Of a stretch of 64,000 nucleotides of DNA, positions 1 through 64,000 are shown piece after piece (positions within the stretch are counted from its first letter, which is position 1; each line of letters starts with the position of its first letter). Both the position numbers and the translations under genes were made by a program. The DNA lies in contig JAHRHZ010000144.1 of NCBI GenBank assembly GCA_024137785.1, forward strand, positions 47,962,537-48,026,536. Reading direction: 5' to 3'. Below the pieces are notes generated by a model. It searched no databases. It was not told the DNA's origin and saw only the letters and a list, made by a program, of their open reading frames with translations. The DNA is from Ginglymostoma cirratum (lineage: Eukaryota).

Positions 1-135
1 AGAAGGGTCTGAAGAAGGGTCTAGGCCCGAAACGTCAGCTTTCCTGCTCCTCTGATGCTGCTTGGCCTGTTGTGTTCATCCATCTCTACACCTTGCTTTC
101 TCAGATTCTCCAGCATCTGCAGTTCCTGCTATCTC
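1..135 (+). mobile_element. Penelope-like terminal-repeat fragment carrying a hammerhead core (family A), cut by the window edge
   Basis: ctgaaga-a-gggt-ctag-gccc-gaaa-cg-tc followed by ttcctgctcctctgatgctgcttggcctg...ctccagcatctgcagttcc. The same sequence recurs at 1685, 4328, 31364, 51918 and 62559. Confidence 0.7.
9..36 (+). ncRNA. Minimal type I hammerhead ribozyme motif
   Basis: CUGAAGA (9-15), an extra A, stem II GGGU/GCCC with loop CUAG, GAAA (29-32), palindromic ACGU in place of stem III, and UC cleavage site. Stem I is weak in this copy. Confidence 0.6.
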
Positions 136-264
136 TAAAAATAATGCAGCCCGTTCTGAAATGGGGCTCTTAAGGGGTTTCCAGCAATTGACCTTTCCCC
201 TCATAAAAACCGTTTGGCAATTCTACTCTAGCCATAGGATGAACAGGAGAAGGATCAGCAACAG

Positions 265-420
265 GGGGAGGTGACTGTGTAGTGGCAACGTCACTGCACA
301 AGTAATCCAGAGACTCAGGTTATTGCTCTGGGAATGTGTTGAATCCCACAATGACAAATGGTGAAATTTGACTTCACTTTAATTAGGAAAAAACTCAAGA
401 GTTAAAAACTCAGCTGGTTC
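265..420 (+). mobile_element. tRNA-derived SINE 5' part, degraded
   Basis: A-box-like gtgtagtgg and B-box-like gttgaatccc, followed by ggtgaaatttga. Confidence 0.55.
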
Positions 421-1206
421 ATTAATTTTGTCCTAAACTAGTCAACAGATTCTGCATTACTCCAGGATAAGAATCCCTTGGACATACTACTCCTACCTGC
501 AGAGTGTCAAAGGCTACACATCACCTTGTAATGGGCTACTTCATGGCCAGTAACATGGTGTGGAAGCTCTCTGACAGTCAGCTCAATGCATTCAGCAGTG
601 GCTGGAGCACAAAAAGCAGGTGCCGTTAAAAGTTGGGCATCCAGTGGCTATTTCTTCACCCTCTCCAGTAGGCCCATGCTCAAGCTGGCTCTTCGGTAAG
701 ATGTTGAAGTAACTTGTGTCAGTGATATTTTTAAGCAATCTGTTCAGATAAGTCTTTACACACTAGCCAATATTTCAGTTGGAAGAGTTGGCATAGAAAA
801 TATGGGACCGAAATCTGATGTGAACTTCATCGTGCCAACTCAGTAGCTGGCCAAGGAGGAAATGTCCCATGTAGTTGTCACTTGGAGGACTACCAGATAT
901 CAGGTACCTGCACAGTCCCAGGCAGGAGATGACTCTGTAGTGACCCTAACCAGTTCATCCAAATGCACATGTCGGAACTGCAATGACAGACAGACATATG
1001 GGGTGCAATGACCATCACTGGCATGAAGCTCAAGCCAGCAGCAAGTCATGCAATCATCTTGTCTACCTCCATGGACAGATTGGTGGCTGCCATGAAGATC
1101 CAGGCGCAGCTTGTTCGGGGTCTGCTAGAGAGGTACACATATCTGCATTCCAGTGCTGCAGACAGTGGTCCTCAGGACTGAAGATGTAGCAACAGGGGAT
1201 AGATTA

Positions 1207-1545
1207 GGGGGCGGCACGGTGGCTCAGTGGTTAGCACTGCTGCCTCACAGCACCAGGGACCCGGGTTTGATTCCAGCCTCGGGCGTCTGTCTGTGTGGAG
1301 TTTGCACATTCTCCCCGTGTCTGCGTGGGTTTCCTCCGGGTGCTCTGGTTTCCTCCTACAGTCCAAAGATGTGCAGGTTAGGTGGATTGGCCATGCTAAA
1401 TTGCCCGTAGTGTTCAGGGCGGTGTAGGTTAGGTGGGTTGTTTGGGGGGGTGGGTCTGGGTGGGACGCTCTGAGGTTCGGTGTGGACTTGTTGGGCCGAA
1501 GGGCCTGTTTCCACACCGTAGGGATTCTGTGTCTGTGTCTGTGTA
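1207..1545 (+). mobile_element. HE1-type V-SINE, full length
   Basis: Starts ggggcggcacggtggctcagtggttagcac (A box) with ggtttgattcc (B box), then V-domain gtgtggagtttgcacattctccccgtgtctgcgtggg, CR1-like tail gggccgaagggcctgtttcc and (tctgtg)n. Possible TSD atagatt at 1199-1205 and 1545-1551. Confidence 0.9.
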
Positions 1546-1672
1546 TAGATTCCACATCCTCCTAAAGAGGCAAGGTGATGCCAGGTGGCACTCAGCTGGA
1601 AGATGAATCATTCACAGGCCTTTCACTAGTTTTCATTCAGGACACTGCAGAGTTGGCCAGGCCGCAGCATGT

Positions 1673-1782
1673 CTGTGACATTTTCCAAAACATCAACTTT
1701 CCTGCTCCTCTGATGCTGCCTGGCCTGCTGTGCTCTTCCAGCTCCACACTGTGTTATCTCTGACTCCAGCATCAGCAGTTCT
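1673..1782 (+). mobile_element. Penelope-like terminal-repeat fragment (family A), hammerhead core decayed
   Basis: aaacatcaactttcctgctcctctgatgctgcctggcctgctg, flanked by cagcatgt at 1665-1672 and 1783-1790. Confidence 0.65.
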
Positions 1783-1944
1783 CAGCATGTGGGCCCAGTT
1801 AGACAAAAGTGTCTCTGGGGTTGCCCGGCCAAACCACAACAGAGCAAGTTCACTTCACCCTGAACCAGAGAGTGCACTGAGGTGCAATGTGAGGGAAAGA
1901 AAGAACAAAATTTATAAGGACACTTCGAATGTTTGATAAGTATC

Positions 1945-4327: not shown

Positions 4328-4410
4328 CTAGGCCCGAAACGTCAAGCTTTCCTGCTCCTGTGATGCTGCTTGGCCTGCTGTGTTCATCCAGCTCCACACC
4401 TTGTTATCTC
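4328..4410 (+). mobile_element. Penelope-like terminal-repeat fragment (family A) with the 3' half of a hammerhead
   Basis: ctaggcccgaaacgtcaagctttcctgctcc...ccttgttatctc, with tgtaa on both sides. Confidence 0.7.
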
Positions 4411-6247: not shown

Positions 6248-7010
6248 ACCAGGGCAGGACTTATACAGCTAATGATAGGGCCCTGGGGTGTGTTGCCGAA
6301 AAAAAAGACCTTGGGTGCTGGTGCATAGTTCCTTGAAAATGGCATCGCAGGCAGACAGAGTGGTGAAGAAGACATTGGGCACACTTGCCTTCATTGGTCA
6401 GTGCATTGAGTATTGGAGTTGGAGTGTCATGTTACAGTTGTAAAGGACATTGGTTGGGTCAGTTTTAAAATTTTGTTCTCAATTTTGGTCACCCTGCTAT
6501 AGGAAAGATGTTGTTAAACATGAAAAGGTTCAGAAACAATGTACACGGATTTTGCCAGGTTCGAGGGTTTGGCCTATAAGGGGAGGCTAAATAGGCTGTG
6601 TTTTTTTTTCCTTGGAACATCTGAGGTTGAGTGGTGACCTGACAGAGGTTTATAAAATCATGAGGAGCATGTATAGGGTGAACAGCTAAGATCTTTTTCC
6701 TAGGGAAGGGCAGTCCAAAACTAGAGGACATAGGTTTAAGATGAGAGGGGAAAGATTTCAAATGGACCTGAGGGGCAACTTTTTCACACAGAGGGTGGTG
6801 CCCGTATGGAATGAGTTGCCAGAGAAAGTGGTGGAGGCTGGTACAATTACAATATTTAAAAGGCATCTGAATGGGTATATGAATAGGAAGAGTTGAGAGG
6901 GATATGGGCCAAATTTTGACAAATGGGACTAGATTAATTTAGGATATTTGGTCAATGCGGACAAGTTGGACTGAAAGGTCTGTTTTCGTGCCGTCTAAGT
7001 TTATAACTCT
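6248..7010 (+). mobile_element. HER1/CR1 LINE, 5'-truncated 3' end
   Basis: Decayed ORF2 C-terminus (ggtgacctgacagaggtttataaaatcatgagg; ttcacacagagggtggtg...tggaatgag) and 3' UTR ggacaagttggactgaaaggtctgtt, which is shared with the HE1 tail. Confidence 0.9.
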
Positions 7011-8749: not shown

Positions 8750-10570
8750 CAAGAGAAACATGGACTAGTCTGACATTCATGCTTGTTGTCCACAACCCTT
8801 CAAATCCCTTTTTCTTGAGATAATTATATAATTCCCTTTCAAAAGCAATGATTGAATCTGCCTTTACCACTCATCGGATTCAAGCCAATCACTGCATGAA
8901 AAGGTTTTGCTCCTTTTTTCCTTCCATGGTTCTTCTTTCATACACTTTAAATTGGTGTCCTTGGGTTCATGACCATTCCATCAACTAATGAAGTTTAGGA
9001 TCCCATTTGTATTTTATTTATCATCTTCCCATTCTGCCCTGCTTTCTTCAAATATTTTTCACATACCAATCCCAGTTTCTCTACACCTGCATCCAATTTT
9101 GATTTGCACTCCTTATTTATATTTTGTAGAATCATAGTATCCCTGCTGTGCAGGCAGAAGCCATTTGGCCCATCAAGCCTGCACCAAAGAGCATCTCACC
9201 CAAACCCAACCTTCCACCCTAGCCCCATATTTACTATGGCTAATCCACCTAACTTGCACATCCGTGAACACTATGGGGCAATTTAGCATGGCCAATTTAC
9301 CTAACCTGCACATCTTTGGACTGTGTGAGGAAACCAGAGCATTTGGCACAAACCTACACAGACGCAGGGAGAATATCTGTGTGAAGTTTGCACAGTCGCC
9401 TGAAGGTAGGATCAAACCCAGGTCCCTGACACTGTGAGGCAGCGGTGCTAACCACTGAGCCATCATGCCATCCATTCCTCTCCCCATTCTTTCTATTAAA
9501 CTGTGTGACTTCATACTCGTTGGAATTAAATTTCATCTGCCATGTATCTGGCCATTCCACCAATCTATTTATGTCTAAGTTTATCACTATTCTCCTCACA
9601 ATTCACACCACTTCTAAGTTTTGTGTCATCCGCAAATGTTGAAGTTGTGCTTATACATCAAGTCTAGATCGTTATTATGGGTCAAGGCAAACAGTGCTCC
9701 CATATAACACTATAAATTTGCACCAGTCCAATAATAACCATTCACCACTACTCTGTTTTTTGTCACGCGGCCAACTTTATGTCAATGTCGCCATTCTTCG
9801 TTTTATTCCACAGCTTCAGCTTTGCTAGCAAGCCTGTTATGTGGCACACTATCAAATGTTGTTTGCAAATCCATCAGTCATTTGACTCACATCAATCTTC
9901 CCTGTTGCTTCATCAAAAAACTTTATCAAATTAGTTAAACATGATTTGATCTTAACAAATCCATATTGGCTTTCTTTAACTGATTTATATTTTCCCAAGC
10001 ACCTGTTAACCACATTGCAGATTACCTCTTCAGAAGGGTTTACCACCATCTTAGTTAACCTGACTGGTCTGTGCATACTTAATTTATACTTGACTCTTCT
10101 GTTAAACAAGGTGTAATGCATGCATTTCTCCAATCCTCTCAGACTAACTACGTTTCTGAAGAAAATGGAAAGATTATGGCCAATGCCTTCATAGTTTTCA
10201 CCTTTGATTCCCTCAATATCCTTGGAAATGTCTAATCTAGTCCTGACGACTTATCAATTAAAGTTCAGCCAGCCTTTTTAATCCTTTCTCTACATTAATT
10301 TGTAGTCCATTTGTGTCTTAGCAACCTTCTATTTCAGATAAATGGTGTTGCATTTTCATCTTTAACAAAGATGGATGCAAACTATTTCAATATCTCAAAG
10401 TGCGTCATTTCATAACTCAGCAACACCCACAGTCTCTAAATCCCTTCTTCACCTGCAATCAGGCATAATCCTCTTTTTAGCACAATTTTACGATTTGTAT
10501 GCATATAGATGTTTAAATTCCCTTTTATGGTATCTGCTAGTCTCTTATCATACTCTTTCTCATCCTGTGG
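8750..10570 (-). mobile_element. CR1 LINE ORF2, decayed, interrupted by an HE1 SINE and continuing at 13335-13590
   Basis: Minus-strand motifs SQYGFVK.KSCLTNLIKFFDE, W.DTWQMKFN and EKEYDKRLA. Confidence 0.8.
9128..9472 (-). mobile_element. HE1-type V-SINE
   Basis: Reverse complement of ggcatgatggctcagtggttagcaccgctgcctcacag, with V-domain and CR1 tail. Confidence 0.9.
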
Positions 10571-15147: not shown

Positions 15148-15493
15148 AGAATTATAGAATCCTTACAGTGCGGAAGCAGGCCATTTGGCCCATGAAGTCC
15201 ACATTAACCCTCTGAAGAGCATCCTACCCAGACCCAACCCTCTACATTATCCCTGTAACCCTGGATTCCCCATGGTTAGTCCATCTAGCCTGCACATTCC
15301 TGGACACTATGGGCAATTTAGCTTGGCCAATCTACATAACCTGCACATCGTTGGACTCTAAGCACTTAGAGAAAACCCACGCAAACACGAGGAGAATGTA
15401 CAAACTCTACATAGACAGTCGCCCAACACTGAAATCGAACTCAGGCCCCTGGCACTGTAAGACAGTGTTAACCACAGAGCTACTGTGCCACCC
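15148..15493 (-). mobile_element. HE1-type V-SINE
   Basis: Homologous to 1207-1545 and 9128-9472. Confidence 0.88.
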
Positions 15494-17419: not shown

Positions 17420-19030
17420 TTACCCTTGGGGCATCCTGTCCAATGTGCCCAAAGATCTGTCAGTCGAGAATTGACCTGTTTACTCACATAAAGCCCCACA
17501 GCTGAAACCGACAGCCCTGGTTAGATGTCTTCGCCAAATCCAGGGAGAGCCATGACTGGTATATGGCATTGATACTCTCTAGTGAACCATGGAGTGTGTG
17601 GTCAGCTCAAAAAAACATTGCAGCTGGGTTCTCCTGGCAGAAAACTGTGATACCAGTGATGCCATCTCCAGACGAGGCTTATACTAGGTAATGGATTTCA
17701 CCATCTCTTCTAACGCAACCAGGACACCAAACGATGAAAGTTATAATTGAACTACAGATGTTCTACAAATTGGCTGTCCTGCACACCTGTAGAAGTGCTG
17801 AGCTGTAGTGTAACAGCAAATGTAATCATAAAATGGGAAAGGAACATGCTGTTATCTCAAGATTGACTGAGACTCTGGGATGCTGGAAACCCCTCAATCC
17901 AATGCTCACTTTGGTGTTGGAAAGAAAACTCAATCGAACCATTCATGCTGATATTGTCTGCAACCAAACTTTCTCAGGCTCGGGCTCCTAATGATTCTCA
18001 AGCTTGAGCATATCTCCGGCCTTTAACTGCCTCCCACCTTCGATACTTGGAACAGTCATTAGGCAAGTTTCTAAGAGGAACATTGAAATAGTAAATGAAC
18101 ACTGAAGGCAGCCATTGGATAGGCACAGCAGAGTGATCATTAGTTCATAGTCATTTCAAAAGCAAATAAAGTAATAAACATTTTTGAATCTTTTCACCTT
18201 CTGGTGATATGACAATCTGAAGAATTGTAAGGGTTAGAAGAGAGATGCTACATTAAGCCAAATCTTGACTTCTTGAACATTGTTCATTCAAACAAACACT
18301 GTCAATACAGAGCTGCCCTATATGGATCCTGACATTTGACCCAGGTATGGCAGACCGGGAGGAATGGGCACCCCGCTTTATTGGTAGGAACCTGAAGGTC
18401 TTCATTGGATGAGGTGCACCAAACAGAGCACTCAGCCTTTTCACAGGATCAGTCCTGGAGGCTACAACACCAGCCCATGCCAGATGGGTCCAAGTTTGTC
18501 ACTCAGGTTAAAACAATCTGAGCTATCTGGAAGAATTCCCAGCATTGTAGGAAGAACATCGATATCCTTCCCTACTCCTTTACGATATGTTCTATCATCT
18601 TTACTCTGATTCCTCACACTCAATCTTTCTCTGCTTCCGTACTCACCTTCTACCAAGGCCCATGCTGTACCACTCTCGCTACTGTATGCAACAACTTCCC
18701 TACTCACTCTCACCCACTTCAAACTCCTAGCAATACTGATCCTGTATGCTGCCTGTGCTGCTTATTCACTTGCTCAAGAATTCTCCTCATCTGTACCAAA
18801 AGTAATAGCTGTGCCACTCTCCATCATCTCCTGTAATACTGTCTGTCTCTTATTCCATGGGGAAATAGCCCAAAATAGGGCAGAGATACTCTAGACAAGT
18901 GCCAATCTGCCCAACATTTGGCTCCTTATCCATTATGAGAAGATCCATGCTCTGACCTCCCTGAGCAGTACCAGAATCTGCCATTGACTTACAGTGCCAG
19001 GAACCCCTGACCAAAGGTTTTCACCCGTCA
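17420..19030. mobile_element. Heavily decayed Harbinger-like remnant
   Basis: Plus strand LILGNGF..TPNDESYN resembles the LLGDxGY..P..E.RYN motif of DDE_Tnp_4. Minus strand LVLLREVRA (about 18950) resembles the Myb/SANT start. Confidence 0.35.
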
Positions 19031-19070
19031 CTGAGATCTGCTAACAACTATGACAAGCTTCCCGGCTTTG

Positions 19071-19317
19071 CAAAAACCGGAAGAACTACGGACGCTGAAA
19101 ATCAGGAACAAAAAACAGGAGTTGCTGGAAGCTCAGCAGGTCTGGCAACATCTGTGAAGAAAAAAATCAGAGTTAACATTTCGGTTCCGGTGACCCTTCC
19201 TCAGATCCGTCAGATCACCGGACTCGAAATGTTACCGGACCCGAAATGTTAACTCTGATATTTTTCTTCACAGATGTTGCCAGACCTGCTGAGCTTCCAG
19301 CAACTTCAGTTTTTTTC
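19071..19317. mobile_element. Penelope-like inverted-repeat insertion (family B) with hammerhead motif
   Basis: Inverted arms at about 19120-19191 and 19234-19305. Minus strand ctgagga-agggtcaccggaacc-gaaa-tg-tt-aac. TSD cttcc(c/t)ggctttg at 19058-19070 and 19318-19330. Confidence 0.75.
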
Positions 19318-20657: not shown

Positions 20658-21480
20658 TAGAGTCAAAGAGTCATACAGCATAGAAACAGACCCTTCAAAC
20701 CAACCAGTCCATGGACCATGTTTCCAAACTAGTTCCACCTGCCTGCACTTGTCCCATATCCCTCCAAACATTTCCTATTCATGAACTTATCCAAATGTAT
20801 TTTAAACATGGTAACTGTACCTGCATGAATCACATTCTCTGGCAGCTCATTTCACACACAAACCACTCTCTCTAAAAAAGTTACCCCCATGTCCTTTTTA
20901 AAAGTTTCTTCCCTCACCCTAAAAATATGCCCCATAGTTTTGACCTCCCTCATGGTCAGGAAAAAACTCTTGTCATTCACCTTATCTATGTCCCTCATGA
21001 CTTTACAAATCTCTATAAGATCACCCCTCAACCTCCTACACACCAGTGAAAAATGTCCCAGCCTATCCAACCTATTTTATAACTCAAACCCTCCATTCCT
21101 GGCAACATACTGGTAAATCTTTTCTGAGCCCTTTCCAAATTAATAATATCTTTCCAATAGCAGGGCAACTAGAACTGCACACAGTTCTCCAGAAGAGGCC
21201 TCACCAATGTCTGAAACAACCTTATCATGAAGTCCCAACTCCTATCATTGTCTGAGCAATGACGACAAGCATTCTAAATACCTTCTTAACCACTCTGTCT
21301 ACCTGTGATGCAAATTGCAAAGAACTATGTATCTGAACCCCTAGATCTCTCTGTTCTACGACTCTACCTAGGTCACTACCATTAACTGTGTAAGTCCTGT
21401 CCTTGTTTGTAGTTCCAAAATACAGTACCTCACATTTATCCAAATCAACCTCCATCTGCCACTCGTCGGCCCATTGACTC
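20658..21480 (-). mobile_element. HER1/CR1 LINE 3' end
   Basis: ORFs give WADEWQME...DKCEVLYFG and RRLRGDLIE.CK.MR; (gactct) tail at 20660. Confidence 0.9.
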
Positions 21481-23725: not shown

Positions 23726-23739
23726 CTCATTGATTTCTA

Positions 23740-31363: not shown

Positions 31364-31635
31364 ATAACAAGCATGGGGCTGGATGAACACAGCAGGTCAA
31401 GCAGCATCATAGGAGCAGGAAAACTTGACGTTTCGGGCCTAAACCCTTCATAAGAAATGGGGGAGGGGAAGAGGGTTCTGAAATAAATAGGGAGAGAGGG
31501 GGAGGCGGATAGAGGATGGATAGAGGAGAGGATAGGTGGAGAGGAGGCAGACAAGTCGAAGAGGCGGGGATGGAGCCAGTATCCAGCCCCATGCTTGTTA
31601 TCTCGGATTCTCCAGCATCTGCAGTACCTTTTATC
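31364..31635. mobile_element. Penelope-like insertion (family A): inverted terminal repeat plus forward 3' end, 14-bp TSD
   Basis: TSD tccagttttggtat at 31352-31365 and 31636-31649. Inverted repeat ataacaagcatggggctggat / atccagccccatgcttgttat. Minus-strand hammerhead-like core at 31427-31454. Confidence 0.8.
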
Positions 31636-34600
31636 TCCAGTTTTGGTATGCCTGCCTCTCATGTTGCACCTAAAAACAGATAAAACAAAATTGCATTTCT
31701 CTTCACACCTGTCTCATATTGCTTACATTGCCTGAAGATTATACGTCCAACTACTTTGTGTTTCCTTTCTCAAGAATTGCCAGTCGCTCCAGAAAGGGAG
31801 AACATCTAGTATATTCCAACCTACCAATTTAGTATTCTTTCCATAATTCACGCCCANNNNNNNNNNAATATATTCCAACCTACCAATTTAGTATTCTTTC
31901 CATAATTCACGCCTCAACAAAATAATTTTCTGCAAGTCTGTTCACAACATATCTACAGCAAAAATGTGAGCAACACAGCAAGATTTGAGCTGGGCTGACA
32001 AGTGGAAACTGTATGCCACTGCCTTCAGAAATATTGTCTTCTTTAAATACTGACACCAACAACATATCCTACTATCAGTTCACTGCCACTGTGTAACCCA
32101 ATGTCTCAACATTTGAGAAGTTCCTTCATAACTGTCAGTTGAACCTGGATAATTAAGCTGTTAACCATGTACTTGAGGGAACAGCTTGGCCATAAATCTG
32201 TCTTGCCTTGGTTCTTCCTCTTTGTTTAAACAATTCTCAGGGGAGGCACATGAATGGCACTTGACACTATCCAGCTTTGCTGGTAATGGATTAGATCAAC
32301 ACAGCACTACGCACATACCTCTTCTGTTGTATGGATTTCCTAAGATTCATAAATTTTGACAAATCAATAAGATAAAGTTACTTGTGTCATATGATCGTTT
32401 CTGTTTCCGATTGTAATTTTATCCAAATGTAGAACAGAGAGGAAAAAAAACTCTTGCAGAATCCAGCAGCAGCAATTTGCTGGCACGCTGTAGAAATGGT
32501 GATCTGATGCTGATGAGTCTTTAGCAGAATGGTAGTTTGTGTTATGTTTTAACTCCTTGACTGTCGTTGAGTGTTCAGGATCATATTCCTTTCATTTTAA
32601 TAACTTGGAAATTATTATAAAACATTTAAATCACTGTAGAACAGCATTATAAAAATAACGCATTCTAAAATGTATTATTTTGTGATTTTGAGAACAGTAT
32701 TCTATATGAAGTTATACTTCAATAATAATTCGACACCTTATTGAATTTCAGGTCCGGAACCTGCACATCAACTCCTTCACATTCGCCACGCGATTTTTAG
32801 TTTCAAGTACTGTCCCTTAATTGATATTAAACATTTCCAGGAGGCGGATAAATCAGGAAACTTCCCAGTAGAACAAGGACAGAAAGCGGGCGTAAGTAAG
32901 TTAAGTTGCAGAGTTTGTCAAATTTGGTTCTAAATTCAATTCAAACAAATGTACTCGGGGACCCCTCGGTGAACCCGACAGTTGTGTAATGTGTACAGGA
33001 TTGTTCAGGTTCGTACAGGGAAAAAAAACACTAAAATCCTGAGCGGACAGGCAACTTAAACTCCAGCAGGACTTACGGGACCATTCATTGATAACATTTC
33101 CTGCTCTCCTTGTCCGCTGGAGCCAACGTCCAGGACAGAAATTTTGAAACTCCACCGGCACCCAATCCCTCACCTGTTTGACAATTCAGCCTTATATGTT
33201 TTCCTGAGATAAAACGTCTGTGGAGTCGTTATGGTTTCGAGGCAGTGTTTGCTGCTGAAAACTATTTTCACATTTATCTCACTTACTTTCTTAAATGTTC
33301 CAGCATCTGCTAGAATATATGTGATGTAAATATTAAGTTTCTTTTTGCAGCTGTCCTTTATTATTATTAAAAATAATATTATTCTTTTCTTGTGTTAATG
33401 TTTCTGCTAGATCATATTTTCAAAGCTTAGATTTCAAATAAAAAGACATAATAAACTGTACAAAGTCATAAATGTATTTGTTGGATGAAGATATCAACAA
33501 ATCCTTTCCAAGACATCAGCAACTAGTTATTTTCACAAATACCCATGTAACTAAATCACTGTAAACATTATGTTCACAAGTAATACTTGTAATTTTACTG
33601 TTTTCTACATACTCTAGCAATATTTAATGTGTAAATTTGCACCATGTCTTTTAATGAGTAAAGAATATGTTAACTATGAAAGGGCATTCATAGGCAGATT
33701 ATTGCAAGGCCTGGTTATCTGATAAACAGAAAGGAATAAAATCTAATGATTAGGCAGTCTTGACAAATAAACGTATTTTAGAAGTCCATAAATTATCTTA
33801 CCTAATTTTTGAAAAATGCGTATCATCCAAAATTCACTGTGCTATACTGCTGTTCCTTCATAAATAGACATGGTACTAAAACAAACATGCATAAACCTAA
33901 TCAGACTCTGAACATAATTGATCCCCATCTCTGCAAATTTAGGTAGGGAACTGATGGCAACATGTTCATTGAAAGGATGTTTTACTTTGTAGTTCCAGTG
34001 AAAAAGAAGATTAAAAGCAAGAATAGCATGTCTCACATGTGTAAAAAATTTGAAAGATAAATGCAGTTTACTTCTGATGTCTATTATCTCTTTGATGAGT
34101 AATATAAAGAAACACTTTCAATGATACATGTTTTATGTTATAAATGATAACTTGAAGCAGTGTGGATTCCAAGAATTTCACAAAAATCATTTGAAAAATT
34201 ATTGGCTTCCAGAAGTATTTTCTTACACTTTATAAATTACAACTTGCTCCTGATCAATCAGAAGATATCTCCTGGCATGAAACCTAGATTATTCAAGCCT
34301 ACATTGAATGTTAATGTGAACTTGTTAACTATTCGAATCCCAATTCTTGCATTAAAAATGTGTGAGCAGGCAACATACATGTATCCACCACTCAACTCAG
34401 TAAAATTTGCAGAACCAGAGAATGACAACCCCAAGAGCAGATTTTAGTGCAGTTGGGAGGCCCCTCCCCACACCAGAAGAGATTTCAATTTTCTGTAAGT
34501 GCCAAGTCCCATCCCAGGAATAAAATAAGCTTGTCCCTTCTGCCCTATTTATAACAGGTGTTATAATCCTGGTGGAGACCAGTAACTTATAAAATGAAAT

Positions 34601-39382: not shown

Positions 39383-39488
39383 ATAACAAAAATGGAAATT
39401 GCTGGACAAGCTCATCAGCTCTGGCAGCATCCTTGGAGAGAACTCAGAGTTAACGTTTCGGGTCGAGTGAGTCTTCCTCAGAACTCCC
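39383..39488 (-). mobile_element. Penelope-like terminal-repeat fragment (family B)
   Basis: Homologous to the left arm of the 19071 element. TSD ttcaggt at 39376-39382 and 39489-39495. Confidence 0.72.
39447..39486 (-). ncRNA. Minimal type I hammerhead ribozyme motif
   Basis: Minus strand GAGUU-CUGAGGA-agacucacucgaccc-GAAA-CG-UU-AACUC. It has a perfect 5-bp stem I and an AACGUU palindrome; stem II is partly mutated. Confidence 0.6.
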
Positions 39489-42664: not shown

Positions 42665-44870
42665 TTCACACTGCTGTATCCCATGACCTGGATTTGTGCA
42701 GGAAGTGTCGTCACCTTGAACTGTGGGTTTCGGAACTTGGCAGCAGCTGGTGTCATGGCAGCAGTGAAGCTGAGAGCGACATGGATAGCACGTTTATAGA
42801 TGTGGCCACTTGGTAGCTTCAGAGATGCAAGGAAAAAGGGAAAGGTTGACTACCAGCCAGTCAAAAAGGAAAACAAGTAAGTATTACAGGAGCTCCCAAG
42901 AGTGAGCCTCACTTCCCAACAAGTATTCAGTTTGGAAATACAAATGAAGTGCTGGAGAAACCTAGCAGATCTGACAGAGTCCATGGAGAGAGAAACAAAA
43001 GTTAGTGTTTTGAATCCTCTTTGGAATCCTGAAGAAAAGTTCCAGAGAAAACTTATATCAGACTTGAAATGTTAACTCCATTTCTCTCTCCATAGACGCT
43101 GCCTGATCTGCTGAGTTTCTCCAGCAATTTCTGTTTTTTGTTTTAGATCTCTAGCATCTGAAGCACTTTGTCTTTCTTCCAGTTCTGAATATTGATAAGC
43201 AACATTGATAGCTCATCTAACTGCAAGAATATCCAAGTCCATGGCATCACGGAGTTATTCAGCAGTGTGAGGTGTGTGAGAGGTTCAGGGAAAACTGGAA
43301 AAGCTATAGTGCTAAAGTGATTCAATAGTTATGGGAAGAGATAAATGTCTGTGTAGCCAGAGACATGAAATCTTCATATTTAGTGTGTTTAATTAGCAGA
43401 GTATATACTGGGATAGTAATATTGTAAAGGGTAGAGAAAGTCAAGAGTTCCTAAAGTGGGTTCAGGAGAACTTTCTGCAGCAGAATATTTTCTGTGCAAA
43501 GAGAAAAGGTGATCAGCTAGAGCTGGTTCTTGGAAATGAGATGGGCCAAATAGATCAAGCAGCAGTATGAGAATACTTAGGGGATAGTGATCACTTAATA
43601 AGATTTAGAGCAAGTACTGAAAAGGATAATGAACTATCCCTAGTCAGAAGAGTTAATTGGAATAAAACTGACTTCTGTGGGGTGAAAATGGACCTGGGTT
43701 AAATACTTCAGAATCAAAGGCTTTCAGGAAAATTGATAACCCATTGAGCTACCTACAAAGAAGAGAATGCTTGGGCACAATCAAGGTGTATTCCTTGAAA
43801 AAGGAAAGGTAAGGCAAACAAATCCAGATCCTCCTGGATAAGAAATGAGGTAGAAATTATAATAAAGAAGATACAAGGTGCTCATAGAAGTTGTCAAGTA
43901 GTAAATAGGATTAAGAACAAGGCTAAAATATAGAATGTTCAGAGAAGTGGTGTGAGAGCAAAGAGGAGAAACCAAGAGAGAATATGAAAAGGTATTTGTA
44001 TCGAACATAAAAGGGAATTCCAAATACTTCTAGAAACATATAAATGGCAAAAGGACAGTAAAAGGGGAAGTGAGGCTGATTAGGCATCAAAGAGTGATTT
44101 ACACATGGAGGCGGGGGTATGGGTGAGATATTAAAAAATACGTGGAATCTGTCTTGTCCGAGGAGTAAGATGTTATCTAGACCATTTAGTTGCTGGTGCA
44201 GTTTAAAATTTACAAGGAGTACTTAAAATTAGCAAGGCATTGGGACTGGTTGAGAACATTCCAAGTATACTGAGCTAACTGAGAATGGAGATTGGAGATG
44301 CCGTAACAATATTTTTTTCAGTTTTCATTCAACTCAGGGATGGTGCCTCAGGACTGGAAAATTGCAAATGCTAAGTCCATATTCAAAAAAGCACACAGAG
44401 CTGAAGAACTGTAGATCAGTCAATTTAACTTTGGTGGTTGGCGAACTTCTAAAATATTAACTTCAGATGAAATTAATAGGCATTGGGGGTTAATTAAGGA
44501 AAATTAACATCGACTTCTTAAGGAAAAATTATGTCTAACGAACCTATTGGAGTTCTGGAAGAGGTACTTAGATGGTTGATCAGAGCAATGCAGCTGCCTT
44601 GTGAACAAAGAAATAAAAAGCACAGTAGCAAAAATTTTTGGATGAATGACAGGAAATAGAGACTAATTGCTAATGGATGTTTTCTAGGCTGGGGAAAGGT
44701 TTGTAATGGAGTTCATCAATGATAAGTGCTGGAATGGTTACTTTTTCTGCTACACATTAATTGTCTAGACCTTAGCACAATTTCAAAATTTGTAGATGAT
44801 ATGAAACATGGAAGATGTTTAAACTGTGAGGCTAGTATAAAAGTTGAAAAGAACATGGACAAGTATTGGT
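42665..44870 (+). mobile_element. Long decayed CR1 (ORF1 zinc finger through RT)
   Basis: ICRKC..L..VSEL (ORF1), LGDSDH, QDWKIANA and ISKFVDDMK. Confidence 0.75.
42935..43176. mobile_element. Penelope-like inverted-repeat insertion (family B, older)
   Basis: Arms gctggagaaacctagcagatc (42951) and gatctgctgagtttctccagc (to 43125). ctgaaga at 43029 and gaaatgttaac at about 43066. Confidence 0.65.
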
Positions 44871-48061: not shown

Positions 48062-48364
48062 ATATAGAATCTCTACAGTGTGGAAGCAGACCATTCAACC
48101 TATCAAAGTCACCCCCCTCAAAGACCATCCCACGTAGAACCATGCCCCCTACCCTTTCACTGTAACCCTGCATTTTCCATGGTTAGTCCACCTAGCCTGT
48201 ACATCTTTGGACTGTGGGAGGAAATCGGAGCACCCAGCAGAAATCCATGCAAATACAGAAAGAATGTACAACCTCTACGCAGACAATCGTCCAAAGCTGG
48301 AATCAAACCTGGGACACTGATGCTGCGAGGCAGTAGTACTAACCACTGAACCACCATGCTGCCC
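48062..48364 (-). mobile_element. HE1-type V-SINE
   Basis: Reverse complement of gggcagcatggtggttcagtggttagtac...ggtttgattcc. Confidence 0.88.
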
Positions 48365-49133
48365 TCTTTTTCTGTACAAGCAGTACTTCACTGAATTTGT
48401 TCTAGTTTTGTAGATGTTATGGACTGAATTTTCCCAGCTGTTGAATGTTGTGTCCTGCGGCGAATCAGTTGGAAAAATGTGGCAAGATCAGAATGAGATG
48501 CTTGATATCAAGGAAAGAAAAATCTGATTTTGCAACCAGGTTTTGATGGGCAAAATGAGAATTTCAGTTAGCCTACTTGCATACATTGATAACTCATATT
48601 GAGTAATTTCCTCTTGTTGATATGCAGATTCCTATTCGCCCACATGTAGGAGTGAAACTAAAATGGTGATAATTCTTGACATGAAAGTCAAAGCAGATAC
48701 CTTGTAGGTTCAGCTGGCTGCTTGCCTCCATCTAGGACAGTAGTGCCCAATATCTCAGGTTACACTACATGGGCAATGTCTACGTACACATCCCAACTAC
48801 TTGGTAGGTATGGACCTGCACCACCTTCAGCGCATCCTCACAACACTTGTCATAAAACACAGTTCTCCACTTCAATGTTGCACCTTGGAGCGTACTAACA
48901 TTTCTCATTGTAAGGCTGCTACCAGGTCACTTATTGCAGAGGGACAAGCACCTAACTCTGGATTGGAGCAAAGTGCATCTCAGGGATCTTCTCTTGTTCT
49001 CTTGGCACTAAATTACTTTGCACCTACTTGGATGCTTATGGCATATCTGTCATGCCTTGCTTTGCCTTTTGCACTCTCCAGTTTCATTTGGAGCTAGCAG
49101 GCTCACAGGGCTTCCTTTTTACATTGCCTTTTA

Positions 49134-49990
49134 ATGCAGACAAATGATAAGGCTGAAGCATTCACAACAATCTTCAACCAGAAGTGCCAAGTGGCTGATT
49201 CATTTTGGCCTCCTCCAATGATACCTAACATCATAGATGCCAGTCTTCAGATGTTTCAACTCACTGCATGGGATACAAATAAATGGTTGGGACCACTGGA
49301 AAGTGCAAAGACTGTGGGCCTTGACAACATTCTGGGAATAGCACTGAAGGCTTGTGCTCCAGAACTTGGTGCTCCCCCAGCCAACTTTTTCCTGTACAGT
49401 TACAAGACCGGCACCTATCCGCCAATGTGGAAAATTGCCAAGGCATGCCCTGTGGACAAAAAGCAGGAAAAATCCAACCCAACCAGTTACCGCTCCATGA
49501 TACTCACAGTCATCAGTAAAGTGATGGAAGGTGTCATCAACAGTGCTATCAAGCAGCATCTCCTCAGCAATAACCTGCTCAGTGACACCCAGTTTGGGTT
49601 CCGCCAGGGCCACTCAACTCCTGATATCATTACAGCCTTGGTTCAAATATGAACAAATAAGTTGAATTCCAAACAAGTGCCGAGAGTGACTGCTCTTGAT
49701 ATCAAGCCTACATTTAACTGAGTATGGCATCAAGGAGCCCTACCAATACTCAATAAATGGGAATTACTGGAAAAAAATCTCCCCTGGTTGAAGTTGTCCC
49801 TGGCATACAGAAAGATGAGCTGTGGTTGTTGAAGGTCACTCATCTCAACTCCAAGACATCTCTGCATCTCCTTCAGGGAGATGTCCTAGGCCCAACCATC
49901 TTCAGCTGCGTCATCAATGACCTTCCCTCCATCATAAGGTGAGAAGTGGGGATGTTCGCTGATGATTGTGCAATGTTCGGCACCATTCTC
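49134..49990 (+). mobile_element. CR1-clade LINE RT fragment
   Basis: ORF 49134-49652 (WKIAK..PV.KK...YR...SKVMEG...QFGFRQG), ALDIK, QGDVLGP.IF...INDL and MFADD. Confidence 0.88.
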
Positions 49991-50224
49991 AGAGGAGAAT
50001 TCTTGCCAACCTGTATGTGGTCCTCCATCAGCTAGGTGTGAACTGGCACCATGCTTTTTCTTTGTGAGGAAGCGACACCTGGAGCGATTGAGGAAAGATG
50101 GTGCATGCAATTGTGAGAGTGGTAGACCATAGCAATGTAGGAAAATAGGAACAGGGGCTGTTCAGCCCCCCAAACCTGTTCTGGACATGGTGAGAGGTGA
50201 ATGCAGTCGCAAATTAACAAGAGT

Positions 50225-52282
50225 ATTGCAGAACACTCAGAAATTGCAGAGGCCTTTGCAGAGATTTTTGCTACATCTTTAGCCACTGGTGAAGTCCCAG
50301 AAGACTGGGATATGGCTAATGTTGTTCCATTGTTGAAGAAAGATAGCAAAGACAAGCCAGGGAACTGCAGGCCAGTGAGCCTGACATCAGTGGCAGGCAA
50401 CTTATTGGAGAAGATACTGAGGGACTGGATCAAACAACATTTGGATAGTCAAGGTCTGATTAGGGATAGTCAGCATGGATTTATGTGCAAGAAGTCATGC
50501 CTGACAAATATTTTTGAGTTTTTCAAAGAAGTAACAAAGAGGATGGATGAAGGTAGGGCAGTGGATGTTGTCTATATGGACTTTAGTAAGGCCTTTGGCA
50601 AGGTCCCATACGGCAAGCTGACCATGAAAGTCAGGTTGCATGGGACCCAGGGAACGCTAGCTGATTGGATTCAAAATTGGCTCGATGGTAAGAAGCATGA
50701 TGGTTGAAGGTTTTTCTCTGACTGGAGGCCTGTGACTAGAAGTGTGCCACAGGGGTCAGTGCTGGGACCTTTGTTATTTGTTATTAACATAACTGATCTG
50801 GATGTGAATGTACGAGGCATGATTAGTAAGTTTGCAGATGATAAAAAATTAGGAGGTATCGTTGATAGTGAAGAAGGTTATCAAAAATTAGAGAGGGATG
50901 TTGACCAGATGGGGAAGTGGGCTGAGGAATGGCCCAATACAGATAAGTGTGAGGTGTTGCATTTTGGAAAGTCAAGCCAAGGTAGGACTTATACAGTAAA
51001 TGGTAAGGTCCTAAGAAGTGTTGTGGAACAGAGGGACATGGGAGTACAAGTATGTAGTTTGTTCAAAGCAACATCACAATGGACAGGGTGGTAAAGAAGG
51101 CATTTAGCATGTCGGCCTTCATCATTCGAGGCATTGAACATAGGAGCTGGGACGTTATGTTACAGTTATATATGTCATTGGTGAGGTCACACTTGGAGTA
51201 TTGTGTACACTTTTGGTCACCCTGTTATAGGAAAGGCATGGCTATGCTGGAAAGTGTGCAAAGAAGATTTACGAGGATGTTGCCAGAACTAATAGACCTG
51301 AGTTACAGAGAGAGGCTGGCTAGGATAGGACTTTATTCCTTGGCACATAGGAGAATGAGGGGTGACCTTACTGAGGAGTATAAAATCATGAGGGGCATAG
51401 ACAGGATGAATGCGTATAGACTTTTTCCCAGGGATGGGGAATTGAAAACTAGAGGGGTTAAAATTGTTTCAGAGATTTTAGGAACTGCAGATGCTGGAGA
51501 ATCTGAGATAACAAGGCNNNNNNNNNNNNNNNNNNNNNNNNNNNNNNNNNNNNNNNNNNNNNNNNNNNNNNNNNNNNNNNNNNNNNNNNNNNNNNNNNNN
51601 NNNNNNNNNNNNNNNNNNNNNNNNNNNNNNNNNNNNNNNNNNNNNNNNNNNNNNNNNNNNNNNNNNNNNNNNNNNNNNNNNNNNNNNNNNNNNNNNNNNN
51701 NNNNNNNNNNNNNNNNNNNNNNNNNNNNNNNNNNNNNNNNNNNNNNNNNNNNNNNNNNNNNNNNNNNNNNNNNNNNNNNNNNNNNNNNNNNNNNNNNNNN
51801 NNNNNNNNNNNNNNNNNNNNNNNNNNNNNNNNNNNNNNNNNNNNNNNNNNNNNNNNNNNNNNNNNNNNNNNNNNNNNNNNNNNNNNNNNNNNNNNNNNNN
51901 NNNNNNNNNNNNNNNNNGTCAGCCTTCCTGCTCCTCTGATGCTGCTTGGCCTGCTGTGTTCATCTAGCTCTACACCTTGTTATCTCTGAAAACTAGAGGG
52001 AACAGGTTAAAGGTGAAAGGGGATAGATTTAAGAATGACCTGAGGGGCAACTTCTTCTCACAGAGAATGGTGTGTATATGGAATGGGCTGCCGGAGGAAG
52101 TGTTTGAGGCAGGTACAATAGCAACATTTAAAAAACATTTGGATAGGTACATGGATGAGAAGGGTTTAGAGGGATATGGACCAAATGCAGGCAATTGGAA
52201 CTAGCTGAATGGGCACTACAGGCAGCATGGACTAGTTTGGACGGAAGGGCCTGTTTCCAATCTGTATTACTCTGACTCTATG
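50225..52282 (+). mobile_element. HER1/CR1 LINE, relatively young RT and 3' end, frameshifted
   Basis: ORFs 50201-50707, 50732-51094, 51079-51460 and 51977-52204 give VDVVYMDFSKAF, VPQGSVLGPLLF and SKFADD; tail ctctgactctatga. Confidence 0.92.
51457..51986. mobile_element. Penelope-like inverted-repeat insertion (family A) spanning an assembly gap
   Basis: Left arm is on the minus strand (ggaactgcagatgctggagaatctgagataacaagg) and right arm on the plus strand (gtcagccttcctgctcc...ttgttatctc). 14-bp TSD tgaaaactagaggg at 51443-51456 and 51987-52000. Confidence 0.8.
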
Positions 52283-58939: not shown

Positions 58940-61020
58940 ATAAAACCATAGGATGTAGAAGCAAAAGAAGGTCATTTGGCCCATTGAGACTGGTCCACTG
59001 GTCAATAAGATCATGGCGATTTGATATTCCTCCACTTCTTGTTCCTGCCTTTTCCCCATTGCCTTTGGCTTTCCTGTTGACCAAAATATTATCTGTAACT
59101 GTCTGCAGTAAAGAAATCCACAGATTCACCTATCCTCTAAGAGAAAAAAATCCTCCTTATCTCAGTCTTAACTGGACAATCCCGTATTTTGAGGTTATGC
59201 CCTCTGATCCCAGACTCTCCCACAAGGAGAAACAACCTCTTGACCCGTACTCTGTCAAGACCCTTCAAAGAAGCTTATATACTTCAATAGAGTCACCTCT
59301 CATTCATCTAAACTCCAATGAGTACAGGCCCAACCTACTCAATATCTCCTCTTTAGAAAATCCCTTCATACCTGGGATCAACTTAGTGAACCTTCTCTGG
59401 ATTGCCTTCAATGCCAGTATATCTTTCCTTTAGTATGGGGATCAAAACAGTTTACAGTATTCTAGATGTGGTCTAACTACTGCCTTAAATAGCTTTTAAA
59501 AAAGTCCCCCGTTTTAAACTCATTTAATCTGAAATAAATGTCAACATCCATTAGCCTTATATATTACTGCTGAACTTATGTAACAGCTTTTTGTGATTTA
59601 TGAAAATGCACAAATTCCTCTGTCTGTAGGTTTCTGCAATTTTCCCTGAATTAGATGTTCAGCTCCTCTATTCTTCTTGCCAATGTGCATAACCTTACAT
59701 TTTCGCACGTTAAATTTCATCTGTTAAGTTTTTGCCCATTCATTTTATCTGTCTATATGCCTCTGCAAACTCTGAAATTCTTACCAATCTATTTCCCCCC
59801 TATTTCTGTTAAATTGGCTATAGTACATTCTCTTCCCTCATCCATGTTTCTAAAATGTATCGTAAACAATTGTGGATCCAGTTCTGATTCCTTTGACACT
59901 CCATTTTTGTTATAGAATTATAGAGTCATAATGTATGGAAACAGTCCGACCTATCATGTTCCCAAGCTAAACTAGTCCCACCTGCCTGCATTTTAGCCCA
60001 TATCCCTCAAACCTTTCCTATTCATGTACTTATCCAAATATATTTTAAATGTTGTCACTATAGCTGCATCCATCACTTTCTCTGGCAGTTCATTCTACAC
60101 ACAAAACATTCTGTGTAAAAACATTGCCCCCCATGTCCTTTTTAAATCTCTCTCTTCTCACCTTAAGGATATGCCCACTAGTTTTGAACTCGATCACCCT
60201 AGGGAAAAGACACTTGGCATTCACCATTCACCATATCTATGCTCCTCACTATTTTATAAATCTCAAAAAGGTCACCCCTCAATCTCCTATGCTCCAATGA
60301 AAAGAAGACCAAGCCTTTCCAGTCTATTTTATTATCTCAAATCCTTTATTCCTGGCAACATCCTGTAAATCTTTTCTGAACCCTCTCCAGTTTAATAATA
60401 TCCTTCCTTTAACAGGGCAACCAAAACTGCACACAGTGCAGAAGAAGCCTCACCAAAGTCCTGTAAAGCCTGAACAAGACATTTCATTCCTATACTTAAA
60501 GGTTTGAACAATGAAGGCCAACCTTCTTAACCACCCTGTCTACTTGTGATGCAAATTTCGAAGAATTATATACCTGAACCCTTAGGTCTCTCTGTTCTAC
60601 AATAAGACTCAGGGGTCTACCATTAATTGTATAAGTCCTGTCCTTGTTTGTACAGGTTGCCATCCTGAAAATACAGCCACTTGCCCCATTCCAACTCTGT
60701 CTTCTATTCTCAATTCTCTATTCACACTCATACTACACATGACGCCACAAGTTCTTACCCTGTGAAATAGCCCAATGTGTGGCACGTTATTGAAAGCCTT
60801 TTGAAAATCCCAAATTTATGTTACATTTACATGTTGCCCTTTATCTGTCCTGTTTGTTACTTTATCAGGCATGATTTCCTTTTCATAAAGCCATGTTGAG
60901 TCTGCTTGCTTGAACGATATAAATCTAAATGCTCTGCTATTACATCTTTCTACCAGACTCTAACATTTTCCCAATGACAGATGTCAAGCTAACTGGTCGG
61001 TAATTACCTTCCTTTTTGAA
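58940..61020 (-). mobile_element. CR1 LINE 3' half, split by a nested HER1
   Basis: 3' tail at 58940 and RT motifs at 60780-61000 (ttttcaaaaggctttc; accagttagcttgacatctg on the minus strand). Confidence 0.8.
59912..60652 (-). mobile_element. HER1/CR1 3' end nested in a CR1
   Basis: Closely similar to 20658-21480. Confidence 0.85.
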
Positions 61021-61074
61021 AAACATTTTTTCAAGTATAGCACTTTTATAGTAGCACTTTTCCAAACCTAGTAT

Positions 61075-61472
61075 GGTGAGCCCTCAATTCCCCAGTATCT
61101 CCCCTCCCATCTCCCTGACCCCCTTTCCCATCCCCCATTCCTATTCCCAACACCATGCCCCCATTTCCCTTCCTCCCATTCTCCCAAAACTTTCCTCCTT
61201 CTGCCTCTACCACCTTTTCCCCCATCCCATCACCATTCTGCCCGCCTGTATAAAAGCAACATGCCCGCCACCTTTGCACCACCTCATGTCTTCTCACCTG
61301 TCCTATCCTCACTCTTCCTCTCTGTTCTCAGTCCTTCACCCTTCCTCACTCCTCCTTCCACATCTCACTCATTATCCATCCTCAAGACTCTCCCAGTACT
61401 CAGTCCTCTCCCCATCCTTACTTCTCCCCTGACTGTTGTAACTCACCCCTCACTGACCCTTTCTAATCCCTA
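61075..61472. repeat. C/T-rich low-complexity tract
   Basis: About 400 bp with very few G on the plus strand and many CCC runs. Confidence 0.8.
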
Positions 61473-62558
61473 ATGAACTCGACTTCAGTTGTGAGCTTCT
61501 TTTTTGCACATGCACAGTTCCTTTGCATCTGACATCATCAAGGTTACATGTAGTGACAGAGTTTCTGGGCTGGTGTGCATATGTATTCACAAGAGAAGCT
61601 GGATGTCACTAGACACTGGCTTTTTAACTTACTTGCTGGTTTACCTTCATTGTTTACCTTTTCCCTTTTTTTTTAGAAACTTTCCAAACCCACTGGCTTA
61701 TCAATAAACTTTGCCACATTGTGCGTTTTTTCTTTCATTATCATTCCTGGATAACTCTTCCTAAAACCCTCCTTCCACACTGGGATATATTAGCTGTGAG
61801 CCATGAACTGTTTCCTTAAATGTCTGCCATTGTTCATCAGTGTCTTTTCTGTTCAACCCCTTTCCCTGTCCATTCCAGATAACTCTATCCACATTCCTTT
61901 GGAACCACACTTATTTAAGTTTAGCACAGTTGTTTCTAAGCCAAGCTTCTTACTCACAAACAGAATACCAAATTCTAACATGTTGTTGTCACTATTTCTC
62001 TTGCTCAAAGCATTTTTTCAACCCGTCACATTACAACATAGTATGATCCTTGCTTGGATCAACACCATACTGTTCTGGAAATTGTTCTGAAAACCCTTTA
62101 TGAATTGTTCTTTGTGACTACCATAATGGCTGTAAGAGCAGACCTGTCAATCCTCTACTTGCACCATTAATTCATTTATTTTCTGAACACCGCGTGCATT
62201 TAAGAACTATTTTACCATTTTATCATTTATCCTCCTCTCACTCTATTTGCTGCTTCTTTTCGTGCTTGGACACCCTGTCCTTTCCTGTTCCACTCATTGT
62301 GTCATTACCTGCCATACCATCACACCCTTTTGCTATGTAAGTCTCTATATCCCTTCTCCAGAACCCTTCACTCCTCTAACCTGTTTTAAAGCCTTATCTA
62401 CAGCCCGAGATATTTAATTTGTCAGGACACTGTTCCCAACGTAGTTCAAATGAAACCTGTCCCAACAAAATATCTCCTTTCTACCCCAGTGCCAGTGCTT
62501 CATGAACTGAAACCTATTCCTCCCACCCCGATCTTTCAATTGCACATTTAACTCCTTG

Positions 62559-62772
62559 ATAACAAGCATGGGGCTGGATGAACACAGCAGGTCAAGCAGC
62601 ATCATAGGAGCAGGAAAACTTGACATTTCGGGCCTAAACCCTTCATCAGAAATAGGGGAGGGGAAGAGGGTTCTGAAATAAATAGGGAGAGAGGGAAAGG
62701 CGGATAGAGGATGGATAGAGGAGAGGATAGGTGGAGAGGAGGCAGACAAGTCGAAGAGGCGGGGATGGAGCC
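62559..62772 (-). mobile_element. Penelope-like terminal repeat (family A), near-identical to 31364-31577
   Basis: 5 differences in about 214 bp by eye. TSD ccttga at 62554-62559 and 62771-62776. Confidence 0.8.
62622..62649 (-). ncRNA. Minimal type I hammerhead ribozyme motif
   Basis: Minus strand auuu-CUGAUGA-a-GGGU-uuag-GCCC-GAAA-UG-UC-aagu. Confidence 0.62.
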
Positions 62773-64000
62773 TTGACTTTGTTTATCCAATGCCAGTTTG
62801 CCTGTGGCTCAGGTATTAATCCAGAGATTAATATTTTGAAGGTTCTGATTTTGAAATTGAATTCCTAACTATTTAAATTCTTTCAGCAAAATCTCCTATC
62901 AAGGTTGTTGGTACCAATGTGGATGATGACAACTTCACCTCCCACCCCAGGTTTTTTGTAAAGCCTGAGATATCCTCAAACAGGCACCAGGCAGGCAACA
63001 CAGCCGTACGCTCACAGTATCACACCACTGACCCCCTCGACCCCCCCACAATTGTGCTGTCCCCCCCTTACTGCTATGTTTCTAGTTTCTTGCCTCCTTC
63101 AATGACTCCCTGTCCTACTACACCATGCTCATCTTTCCAGCAGTCCCTATTCTAATCGTTACAGCTAGCAAAAACATAATAACTGTTGTACAACTTCAGG
63201 GGCTGAGGCTCCTCTAATGTTACCCCCCAGCACCCCATATCTGCTTCACCTGCAGTCACAGCCTTCTAGCCCTGTTCACAGATTAAATTTAGATTACCTA
63301 ATCCGAGGGGCATGACCACTTCCTAGAGCAAAGTGTCCAGGTAACCCTCCCCGGCTATGATATGGTGCATTGTCTGCACCTCAGACTCCATGTCCTCAGT
63401 TTGGACCTGGATTTCCTTGGGCTGCAATCACGAACTGCAAATGTGTTTGTCGTGGATGACTTTTGTATCCAGCAGCTCCCACACACTGCAGCAGCAACAC
63501 ATTACATGCCCTGTCAGCATTATCTTGCCTGGAGAGAGGGGAATGAATGGACTTGAAAGATGTATTGTTCTGAGCACTTAGAATTCTAGGAATGTCAGAT
63601 GGTGAGGTTTGGCACCTCAGTGTGCTATCCAGCTTACCTTTCTATCCCTCTTGGGGGTCCTGGATCCACTCCAAGTTGGAGGAACAGCACTCTTGCTGCC
63701 CCTTTTTTCGTCACTTTCATGTGTGCCTGTTTCATTTAAATGGCTGCCCTCTTCTTTCTGTCCTTTGGAGCACTCACTTCACTGTGGAACCTCAAATGCC
63801 TTGGCACATCCTGTATGTAGTGTTGAGACAAACCTTCCCAGATTTCCTCTCCATCCCTTCAGTTGTTGCAGCCTCAAAAATCCATATGTTGTCAGGTTCC
63901 TGTAATTAAACCAAGGCCACTTTAAGTTGAAATCATTTCTTTGATGAAACAGACATGTCATCTCACATAACATCCCTAACTGGTTGGTCCACTCAGAAAC

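Follow-up and report, generated by a model that had tools for sequence, protein, structure and literature searches.

A common 5' end at the ribozyme edge among hammerhead-bearing Penelope-like element insertions of the shark Ginglymostoma cirratum

Here, we analyse a 64,000-nucleotide stretch of the genome of the shark Ginglymostoma cirratum (assembly GCA_024137785.1, contig JAHRHZ010000144.1, positions 47,962,537 to 48,026,536 of the forward strand; hereafter the window) and the nine related short inserts within it, which carry a predicted hammerhead ribozyme core or the remains of an element end that had one. Elsewhere in the genome the same ends are continuous with the reverse transcriptase (RT) and GIY-YIG endonuclease coding DNA of Penelope-like elements (PLEs), and many copies, short as well as gene-carrying, begin at one place just before the ribozyme. 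As far as sequence can tell, this shared 5' start likely records where the RNA of these elements begins.

Nine inserts in the window

All nine inserts of a preliminary description of this DNA were found where it had placed them. Six belong to family A, with its subfamilies A1 and A2 (inserts 1, 1673, 4328, 31364, 51457 and 62559, named by window position), two to family B (19071 and 39383), and insert 42935 is a B-related variant. Coordinates within copies are given below as negative or positive numbers counted from the predicted hammerhead cleavage site.

The A1 end at 1..136 (+ strand) has a tail and a core at 9-36 with a 4-bp stem II; the 5' strand of stem I is missing, positions 1-8 repeat part of the core, and the 5' flank lies beyond the window. 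A decayed A1 end at 1673..1781 (+), alignable from -9 to +89, is flanked by a 10-bp target-site duplication (TSD) with one mismatch (1663-1672 and 1781-1790), and a tailless family A end at 4328..4410 (+; -15 to +66) retains only the 3' half of the core and has a weak TSD of 5-6 bp. Both had been described as decayed or partial, and both are without CUGANGA. The A1 fold-back insertion at 51457..51989 (-) has a 14-bp TSD, sits inside remnants of a long interspersed element (LINE)-like RT and spans a gap of 400 N (51518-51917), into which its core would fall, as previously noted; its - strand arm runs 14 nt beyond the tail into the 5' leader of the element, matching locus L094 elsewhere in the genome at 13 of the 14 positions. 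Subfamily A2 is represented by a fold-back insertion at 31364..31637 (-; TSD 14 bp), composed of a tailless - strand arm (-153 to +63) in whose core (31454-31427) G5 is mutated and a tailed + strand arm (31581-31637, +43 to +99), and by a tailless end at 62559..62772 (-; -149 to +64; 6-bp TSD). The latter, which has a CpG change in stem III, is the sole window copy to combine a core (62649-62622, -) with stems I and II (4 bp each). The two A2 copies are 97.7% identical (31364-31577 against 62559-62772), and their near-identical 5' breakpoints (-153 and -149) may be coincidental or stem from local re-copying or a second stop site.

In family B, the fold-back insertion at 19071..19317 (-; TSD 13 bp, one mismatch) consists of a tailed - strand arm (19205-19072, -30 to +103), with a complete core at 19204-19175 and a mispaired stem II, and a tailless inverted + strand arm (19231-19317) with a 17-bp duplication. 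The tailless family B end at 39385..39488 (insert 39383, -; about -35 to +68) starts at the 5' edge of the ribozyme and has a complete core (39481-39452, -), a 6-bp stem I, a broken stem II and a 10-bp TSD with one mismatch. The old B-related fold-back insertion at 42935..43178 (+), a variant known without a link to an open reading frame (ORF), has a weak 5-bp TSD and has lost stem I.

Whole or singly mutated cores (CUGANGA-A-stem II-GAAAYGUY) are thus present in six window copies: the five to which they had been attributed (1, 19071, 31364, 39383 and 62559), and insert 42935, whose core was earlier regarded as partial and proved complete, with a long loop II (43029-43073, +). TSDs of 5-14 bp, likewise reported before, were found in all eight copies examined (the copy at the window edge was left out): five measure 14, 14, 13, 10 and 10 bp, three of them with a single mismatch, and the 5-6-bp repeats at 4328, 42935 and 62559 are weak. 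For no window copy was a same-strand dimer partner found close by. In line with the preliminary description, no PLE coding sequence was found in the window (tblastn best E 0.77). A weak match to the family A tail at 33282-33310 (E 0.007) is possibly a tenth remnant.

The window also contains repeated LINE-like RT remnants, which we take to be CR1/L2-like (6301-6938, 20726-21411, 27247-28193, 49098-52266 and 59969-60652), and a dispersed 200-330-bp repeat resembling a short interspersed element (SINE), presumably akin to elasmobranch HE1 (1187-1520, 9224-9495, 15281-15465 and 48167-48367). At 31804-31919, a 10-N gap has the same stretch of about 50 bp on each side, a duplication that the assembly probably introduced.

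Autonomous elements and their abundance

Elsewhere in the genome, family A ends have upstream of them a pyrimidine-rich untranslated stretch and then GIY-YIG and RT coding DNA. The GIY-YIG part scores 23.0-23.3 bits against Pfam PF01541 (cut-off 22.6), and the RT part has YIDD and DKG motifs and matches RVT_1 with E 3e-5, below the Pfam cut-off. Three loci (L109, L093 and L101) were used to examine whether RT and GIY-YIG lie in a single ORF; L109 has an uninterrupted stop-to-stop frame of 1065 aa with both, including DKG, YIDD and a C-X4-C-X2-C linker upstream of GIY-YIG, and its GIY-YIG domain scores above the Pfam cut-off. Among 20 loci picked for long frames, two (L094 and L101, family A only) are complete units in which the ORF lies between two pseudo-long terminal repeats (pLTRs); in each, both pLTRs contain the hammerhead, and the motif is identical in the two pLTRs of L094. 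Inserts 31364 and 62559 are 97-98% and 96% identical, respectively, to the pLTR of the full-length copy L101. Family B ends join a GIY-YIG frame 40-63% identical to that of A in at least four of 30 loci (L043, L058, L046 and L052), where the coding DNA comprises the GIY-YIG part only, plus a short RT remnant in L043. The junctions to RT or GIY-YIG frames that the preliminary description had proposed to look for therefore exist, for A in L094, L101 and L109 and for B, with GIY-YIG, in four loci.

A first look at the genome gave 32,291 candidate matches to the RT piece. Among named proteins, the closest two belong to Chiloscyllium punctatum (81% and 77% identity). The next RT relatives after these two shark matches, mostly at 46-59% identity, bear crinoid, cnidarian, tick and snail names (proteins P0003-P0120), and may point to old horizontal transfer or to sparse sampling. 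By its motifs, including the C-X4-C-X2-C linker, the shark element would be of the Neptune type; a CX2-5CxxC linker between RT and endonuclease is common to Neptune and Nematis (PMC8557442).

Insert lengths form a series from about 30 bp to 3.6 kb, in which 28 of 113 clusters reach the ORF and short pieces outnumber ORF-bearing ones. Judged from the sequence, then, the inserts are the pLTR/tail ends of autonomous GIY-YIG PLEs, mostly broken end-pieces. Of the two origins offered in the preliminary description, that of solo Penelope termini, here bearing a minimal type I hammerhead, agrees with these data; a non-autonomous family moved in trans is unnecessary, since both families are contiguous with RT or GIY-YIG frames and the lengths form a series. 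Other identities fitted poorly. An unrelated miniature inverted-repeat transposable element, previously named as a possible alternative, would have symmetric terminal inverted repeats and TSDs of fixed length, whereas here the arms are unequal by the tail and the TSDs vary from 5 to 14 bp. Non-LTR retrozymes consist of tandem hammerhead units; the window holds three tiny tandem arrays, none of them such a unit. The Rfam scan gave no tRNA or 5S match over the inserts, and no dedicated tRNA scan was made.

Abundance was estimated from 100 random 10-kb stretches of 16 large contigs, of which 28 unreadable ones were left out. The sample contained 103 end-bearing insertions, or 151 per Mb (bootstrap 123-180), about 41 strict hammerhead motifs per Mb and approximately 5% PLE sequence. 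With nine inserts in 63.6 kb (141/Mb), the window is ordinary for this genome. Extrapolated to the 4.36-Gb assembly, whose gap share is unknown, these densities would put the number of insertions at several hundred thousand and that of strict motifs at about 10^5.

The ribozyme and the ends of the inserts

A descriptor scan for the strict motif gave 28 matches in random stretches totalling 681,709 called bases, whereas each of 10 dinucleotide shuffles gave 0-1, and stem I, which the scan did not demand, has at least three pairs in 19 of the 28 matches and in none from the shuffles. Rfam, to which the preliminary description had looked for confirmation, did not provide it: the scan of the window with 4227 models found no hammerhead at E<=10, and its best hit, MIR2118, was below cut-off and merely the palindrome of insert 19071. 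The expectation that the core would be kept better than its flanks was borne out, as families A and B are 69% identical in the ribozyme region, 52-54% upstream and 58-61% downstream, and the stems covary. Across seven natural copies from six families (for D and E the scan had demanded stem II and the palindrome, not stem I), C3, U4, G5, A6, G8, A9 and the A's of GAAA do not vary, whereas substitutions in stems I, II and III are paired; one example is the dimer helix, where ACGU is replaced by AGCU. Four of the random loci (L136, L200, L117 and L121) represent two further hammerhead families, one with the AGCU dimer helix; a distant PLE-like frame (28-32% identity) is found about 900 bp upstream of L200.

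The 3' ends of the inserts fall at two sites about 35 nt apart, +61 to +74 and +97 to +100, and many insertions have an inverted second arm (in the window 19071, 31364, 42935 and 51457). The 5' ends were collected from random A arms (38 kept, identity at least 88%), random B arms (23 kept, at least 84%) and tail-selected sets covering A1 (17 of 29) and B (27 of 29), with arms adjoining gaps or locus edges dropped. For the 89 arms that begin between -100 and +30, 47 starts lie in -36..-27, where 6.8 would be expected if they were uniform, and five lie at the cleavage site, where 4.8 would be expected; the peak at the cut that might have indicated cleavage in vivo is absent. The pile-up occurs in both families, though their upstream DNA aligns at only about 52%. 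Gene-carrying copies behave alike: in 29 loci chosen solely for the A2 ORF start, of which eight were dropped for gaps, the 5' end lies at -34..-29 in 11 of the 21 gap-free copies and at the cut in none. If the comparison is confined to copies extending at least as far as -29, 11 of the 16 ORF-start copies go no further, as do three of the 13 A2 end arms from the random set (post-hoc Fisher p 0.025). Additionally, 12 of 59 tailed A arms, all of them short, pass +100 into the leader that follows only the upstream pLTR. An extra G, such as a cap might template, is seen in no more than a few copies. A YYANWYY motif, which we take as the initiator consensus, stands at -31 in A and -33 in B.

Several other causes of the pile-up could be set aside. 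It is not an assembly artefact, since 1,095 raw reads have their loose ends there too and gap-adjacent arms were dropped. Stalling at a G-quadruplex in the C-rich tract of family A is not its sole cause, because the same peak occurs in family B, which has no such tract, and a splice acceptor at stem I does not fit the short B copies, which are without a shared upstream exon.

RNA reads add little on this point. On the A2 element lie 40,322 of 12,895,792 poly(A) records, even in both directions and deepest at the tail (about 4,200 on the end sequences compared with 60-800 elsewhere on the element), as expected for passive read-through, and the unique DNA of window positions 18500-33500 has no depth in either of two read runs. 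Back-going read joints coincide with the tandem seam or fall within the ORF start, and none is at the cut among the joints listed. Within L101:5592-6266, the 5' part of the ORF, two such joints (194 and 107 reads, one form also present in a contig) may stem from a rearranged expressed copy or from circular RNA.

Origin of the inserts and relation to known systems

We consider it probable that the inserts are ends of endonuclease-bearing PLEs made by target-primed reverse transcription, and that the shortest are run-off copies of the front of an uncleaved RNA. A capped RNA would begin at the initiator-like motif (-31 in A, -33 in B), with its first few nucleotides forming hammerhead stem I. By analogy with an anole element (PMC11167929), the protein would nick both target strands and start reverse transcription at +65 or +100; use of either of these internal start sites, which bound the tail, would give fold-back inserts as well as inserts with and without a tail. 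Priming on the downstream tail would lead to ordinary 5'-shortened copies such as 31364 and 62559, priming on the upstream tail to a run-off of about 100-135 nt that keeps the whole core (39383 and 19071), and priming from both strands to fold-back inserts. The template would be uncleaved, because no 5' ends pile up at the cut. The ribozyme would be selected in the source elements, cutting only as a dimer or with protein. To the more specific proposal, that the transcription start coincides with the first hammerhead strand and that abortive run-off of the leader seeded about 10^5 whole cores genome-wide, we give even chances. If this is true, the genome is a natural 5'-end map of PLE RNA, uncleaved RNA is the template in vivo, and cleavage would decap PLE RNA, a possible switch between translation and copying.

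The competing account to be taken most seriously, although we regard it as unlikely, shares the PLE origin and places the RNA start further upstream, with the pile-up made by a barrier or a joining hot spot: the RT would stall at the folded or protein-bound ribozyme, or cDNA would be joined at the near-palindrome or T-run at the 5' edge of the core. Several observations weigh for it or against an RNA start at the ribozyme edge. Five of the 16 ORF-start copies run upstream of -34, so longer templates exist; the upstream pLTRs of the full-length copies L094 (to -63) and L101 (to -325) likewise extend beyond this point; the 5'-end peak has a shoulder to -18; and YYANWYY matches six to eight times per 425-490-nt pLTR, which weakens the initiator assignment. 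Arms within one insertion are not independent, the samples are small, and the Fisher test is a single post-hoc comparison. Poly(A) reads reveal no site where many molecules begin or end, although such a library would hardly show one. Further, an inverted partner accompanies 26 of 64 short arms, in many cases with the junction at the near-palindrome; palindromes at inverted PLE junctions have been published (PMC3846280), and the predicted fold of the A2 core is a single long hairpin. However, the remaining 38 of the 64 arms were scored as single, without a partner to join, a structural block should halt the RT 3' of the fold, where no peak is seen, and the more frequent stops in ORF-start copies than in end arms also speak for an RNA start over a barrier.

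It appears quite improbable that the 100-135-nt pieces are a self-propagating, SINE- or retrozyme-like non-autonomous family re-mobilised in trans from read-through RNA. Such a family would account for the excess of short pieces over ORF-bearing ones, the prominence of end sequences in poly(A) reads and the near-identical breakpoints of 31364 and 62559, and pLTRs can act in trans (PMC3846280); on the other side, the window has no tandem arrays of the unit, the 5' ends spread over 10-18 nt, short and long copies have the same stem II variants, and ORF-start copies have the same 5' end. We hold it more improbable still that solo hammerheads act within host transcripts, where they would be retained to serve as regulatory cleavage sites. 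The motif density and the number of poly(A) records on the A2 element would suit this idea, as would core A/U divergence, which is slightly lower: among copies, non-CpG core A/U sites differ in 6 of 571 cases and downstream A/T sites in 169 of 5,914. A lower value would be expected from selection on several source elements, although, as a further point against our preferred account, it may also be compatible with weak selection on inserted copies. Against host function, G12 is changed in 22 of 135 inserted copies, compared with 41 of 312 at other CpGs, and cores are intact in 26 of 50 A1, 16 of 23 A2 and 16 of 60 B copies, a share that drops with family age. The predicted active monomer fold (-3.5 kcal/mol) is also weaker than an inactive hairpin (-9.3 kcal/mol). 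Published PLE hammerheads need dimers or PLE protein (PMC4209133, PMC11167929), their monomers being inactive (PMC4209133), and eight of nine Xenopus dimers failed to cleave (10.64898/2026.07.22.740005). The earlier suggestion that the inserts scatter self-cleavage sites across the genome is thus unsupported, with core and both stems in one of nine window copies, no same-strand partner and G12 lost at CpG rates. We conclude from these comparisons of copies that the ribozyme would matter to the source elements and be a passenger in the inserts, decaying passively at CpGs.

The elements themselves are of a known kind. Minimal hammerheads in pLTRs, inverted 5' arms and one-sided tails of 30-40 bp are described PLE features (PMC8557442, PMC3846280, PMC4209133). 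With endonuclease-bearing PLEs of the Neptune type (PMC8557442, PMC3846280), the shark elements further share the single RT-GIY-YIG ORF, the CX4CxxC linker, CCHH-type residues, partial-tandem pLTRs, variable TSDs and heavy 5' shortening; they differ in the extrapolated several hundred thousand insertions, in the sharp common 5' end at the ribozyme edge and in the lack of microsatellite targeting at the eight window TSDs. The ribozyme resembles described minimal type I PLE hammerheads in its core, the extra nucleotide after A9, the G10.1-C11.1 pair, the short stem I, the palindromic 15.2-16.2 without loop III, and the prevalence of solo motifs and opposite-strand pairs 100-700 bp apart. Reported totals are about 4,000 in coelacanth and 9,000 in Xenopus, against about 41 strict motifs per Mb here, with descriptors that differ; sharks are not named in the passages and supplement searched. 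Our literature searches turned up no report of PLE hammerheads in sharks or of copies sharing a start at the edge of the ribozyme, although Repbase, Dfam and several supplements, which lay outside the search, may hold them. Animal non-LTR retrozymes (10.64898/2026.07.22.740005) are alike in pLTR derivation, type I hammerhead and dispersed monomers, but consist of tandem units each with a hammerhead, whereas the window copies are solo or head-to-head and have PLE tails.

The Poseidon element PAc of Anolis carolinensis (PMC11167929), although of another clade, is similar in having two RT start sites bounding the tail, priming on both strands, and an uncleaved RNA template with no ends at the cleavage site. 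The PAc ORF starts inside the ribozyme, while in the shark element about 140 nt separate the cut from the first ATG downstream, and the passages seen do not report an RNA start at the ribozyme edge for PAc. The role of the ribozyme in PLE replication has been stated to be unclear (PMC8557442), and it is dispensable in vitro (PMC11167929). Compared with these systems, the unexpected feature is the sharply defined 5' end at the edge of the ribozyme; shared by tiny and ORF-carrying copies, it names one position for cap mapping, and the young family with its uninterrupted ORF offers a putatively Neptune-type counterpart for the in vitro assay, which has so far used the Poseidon element.

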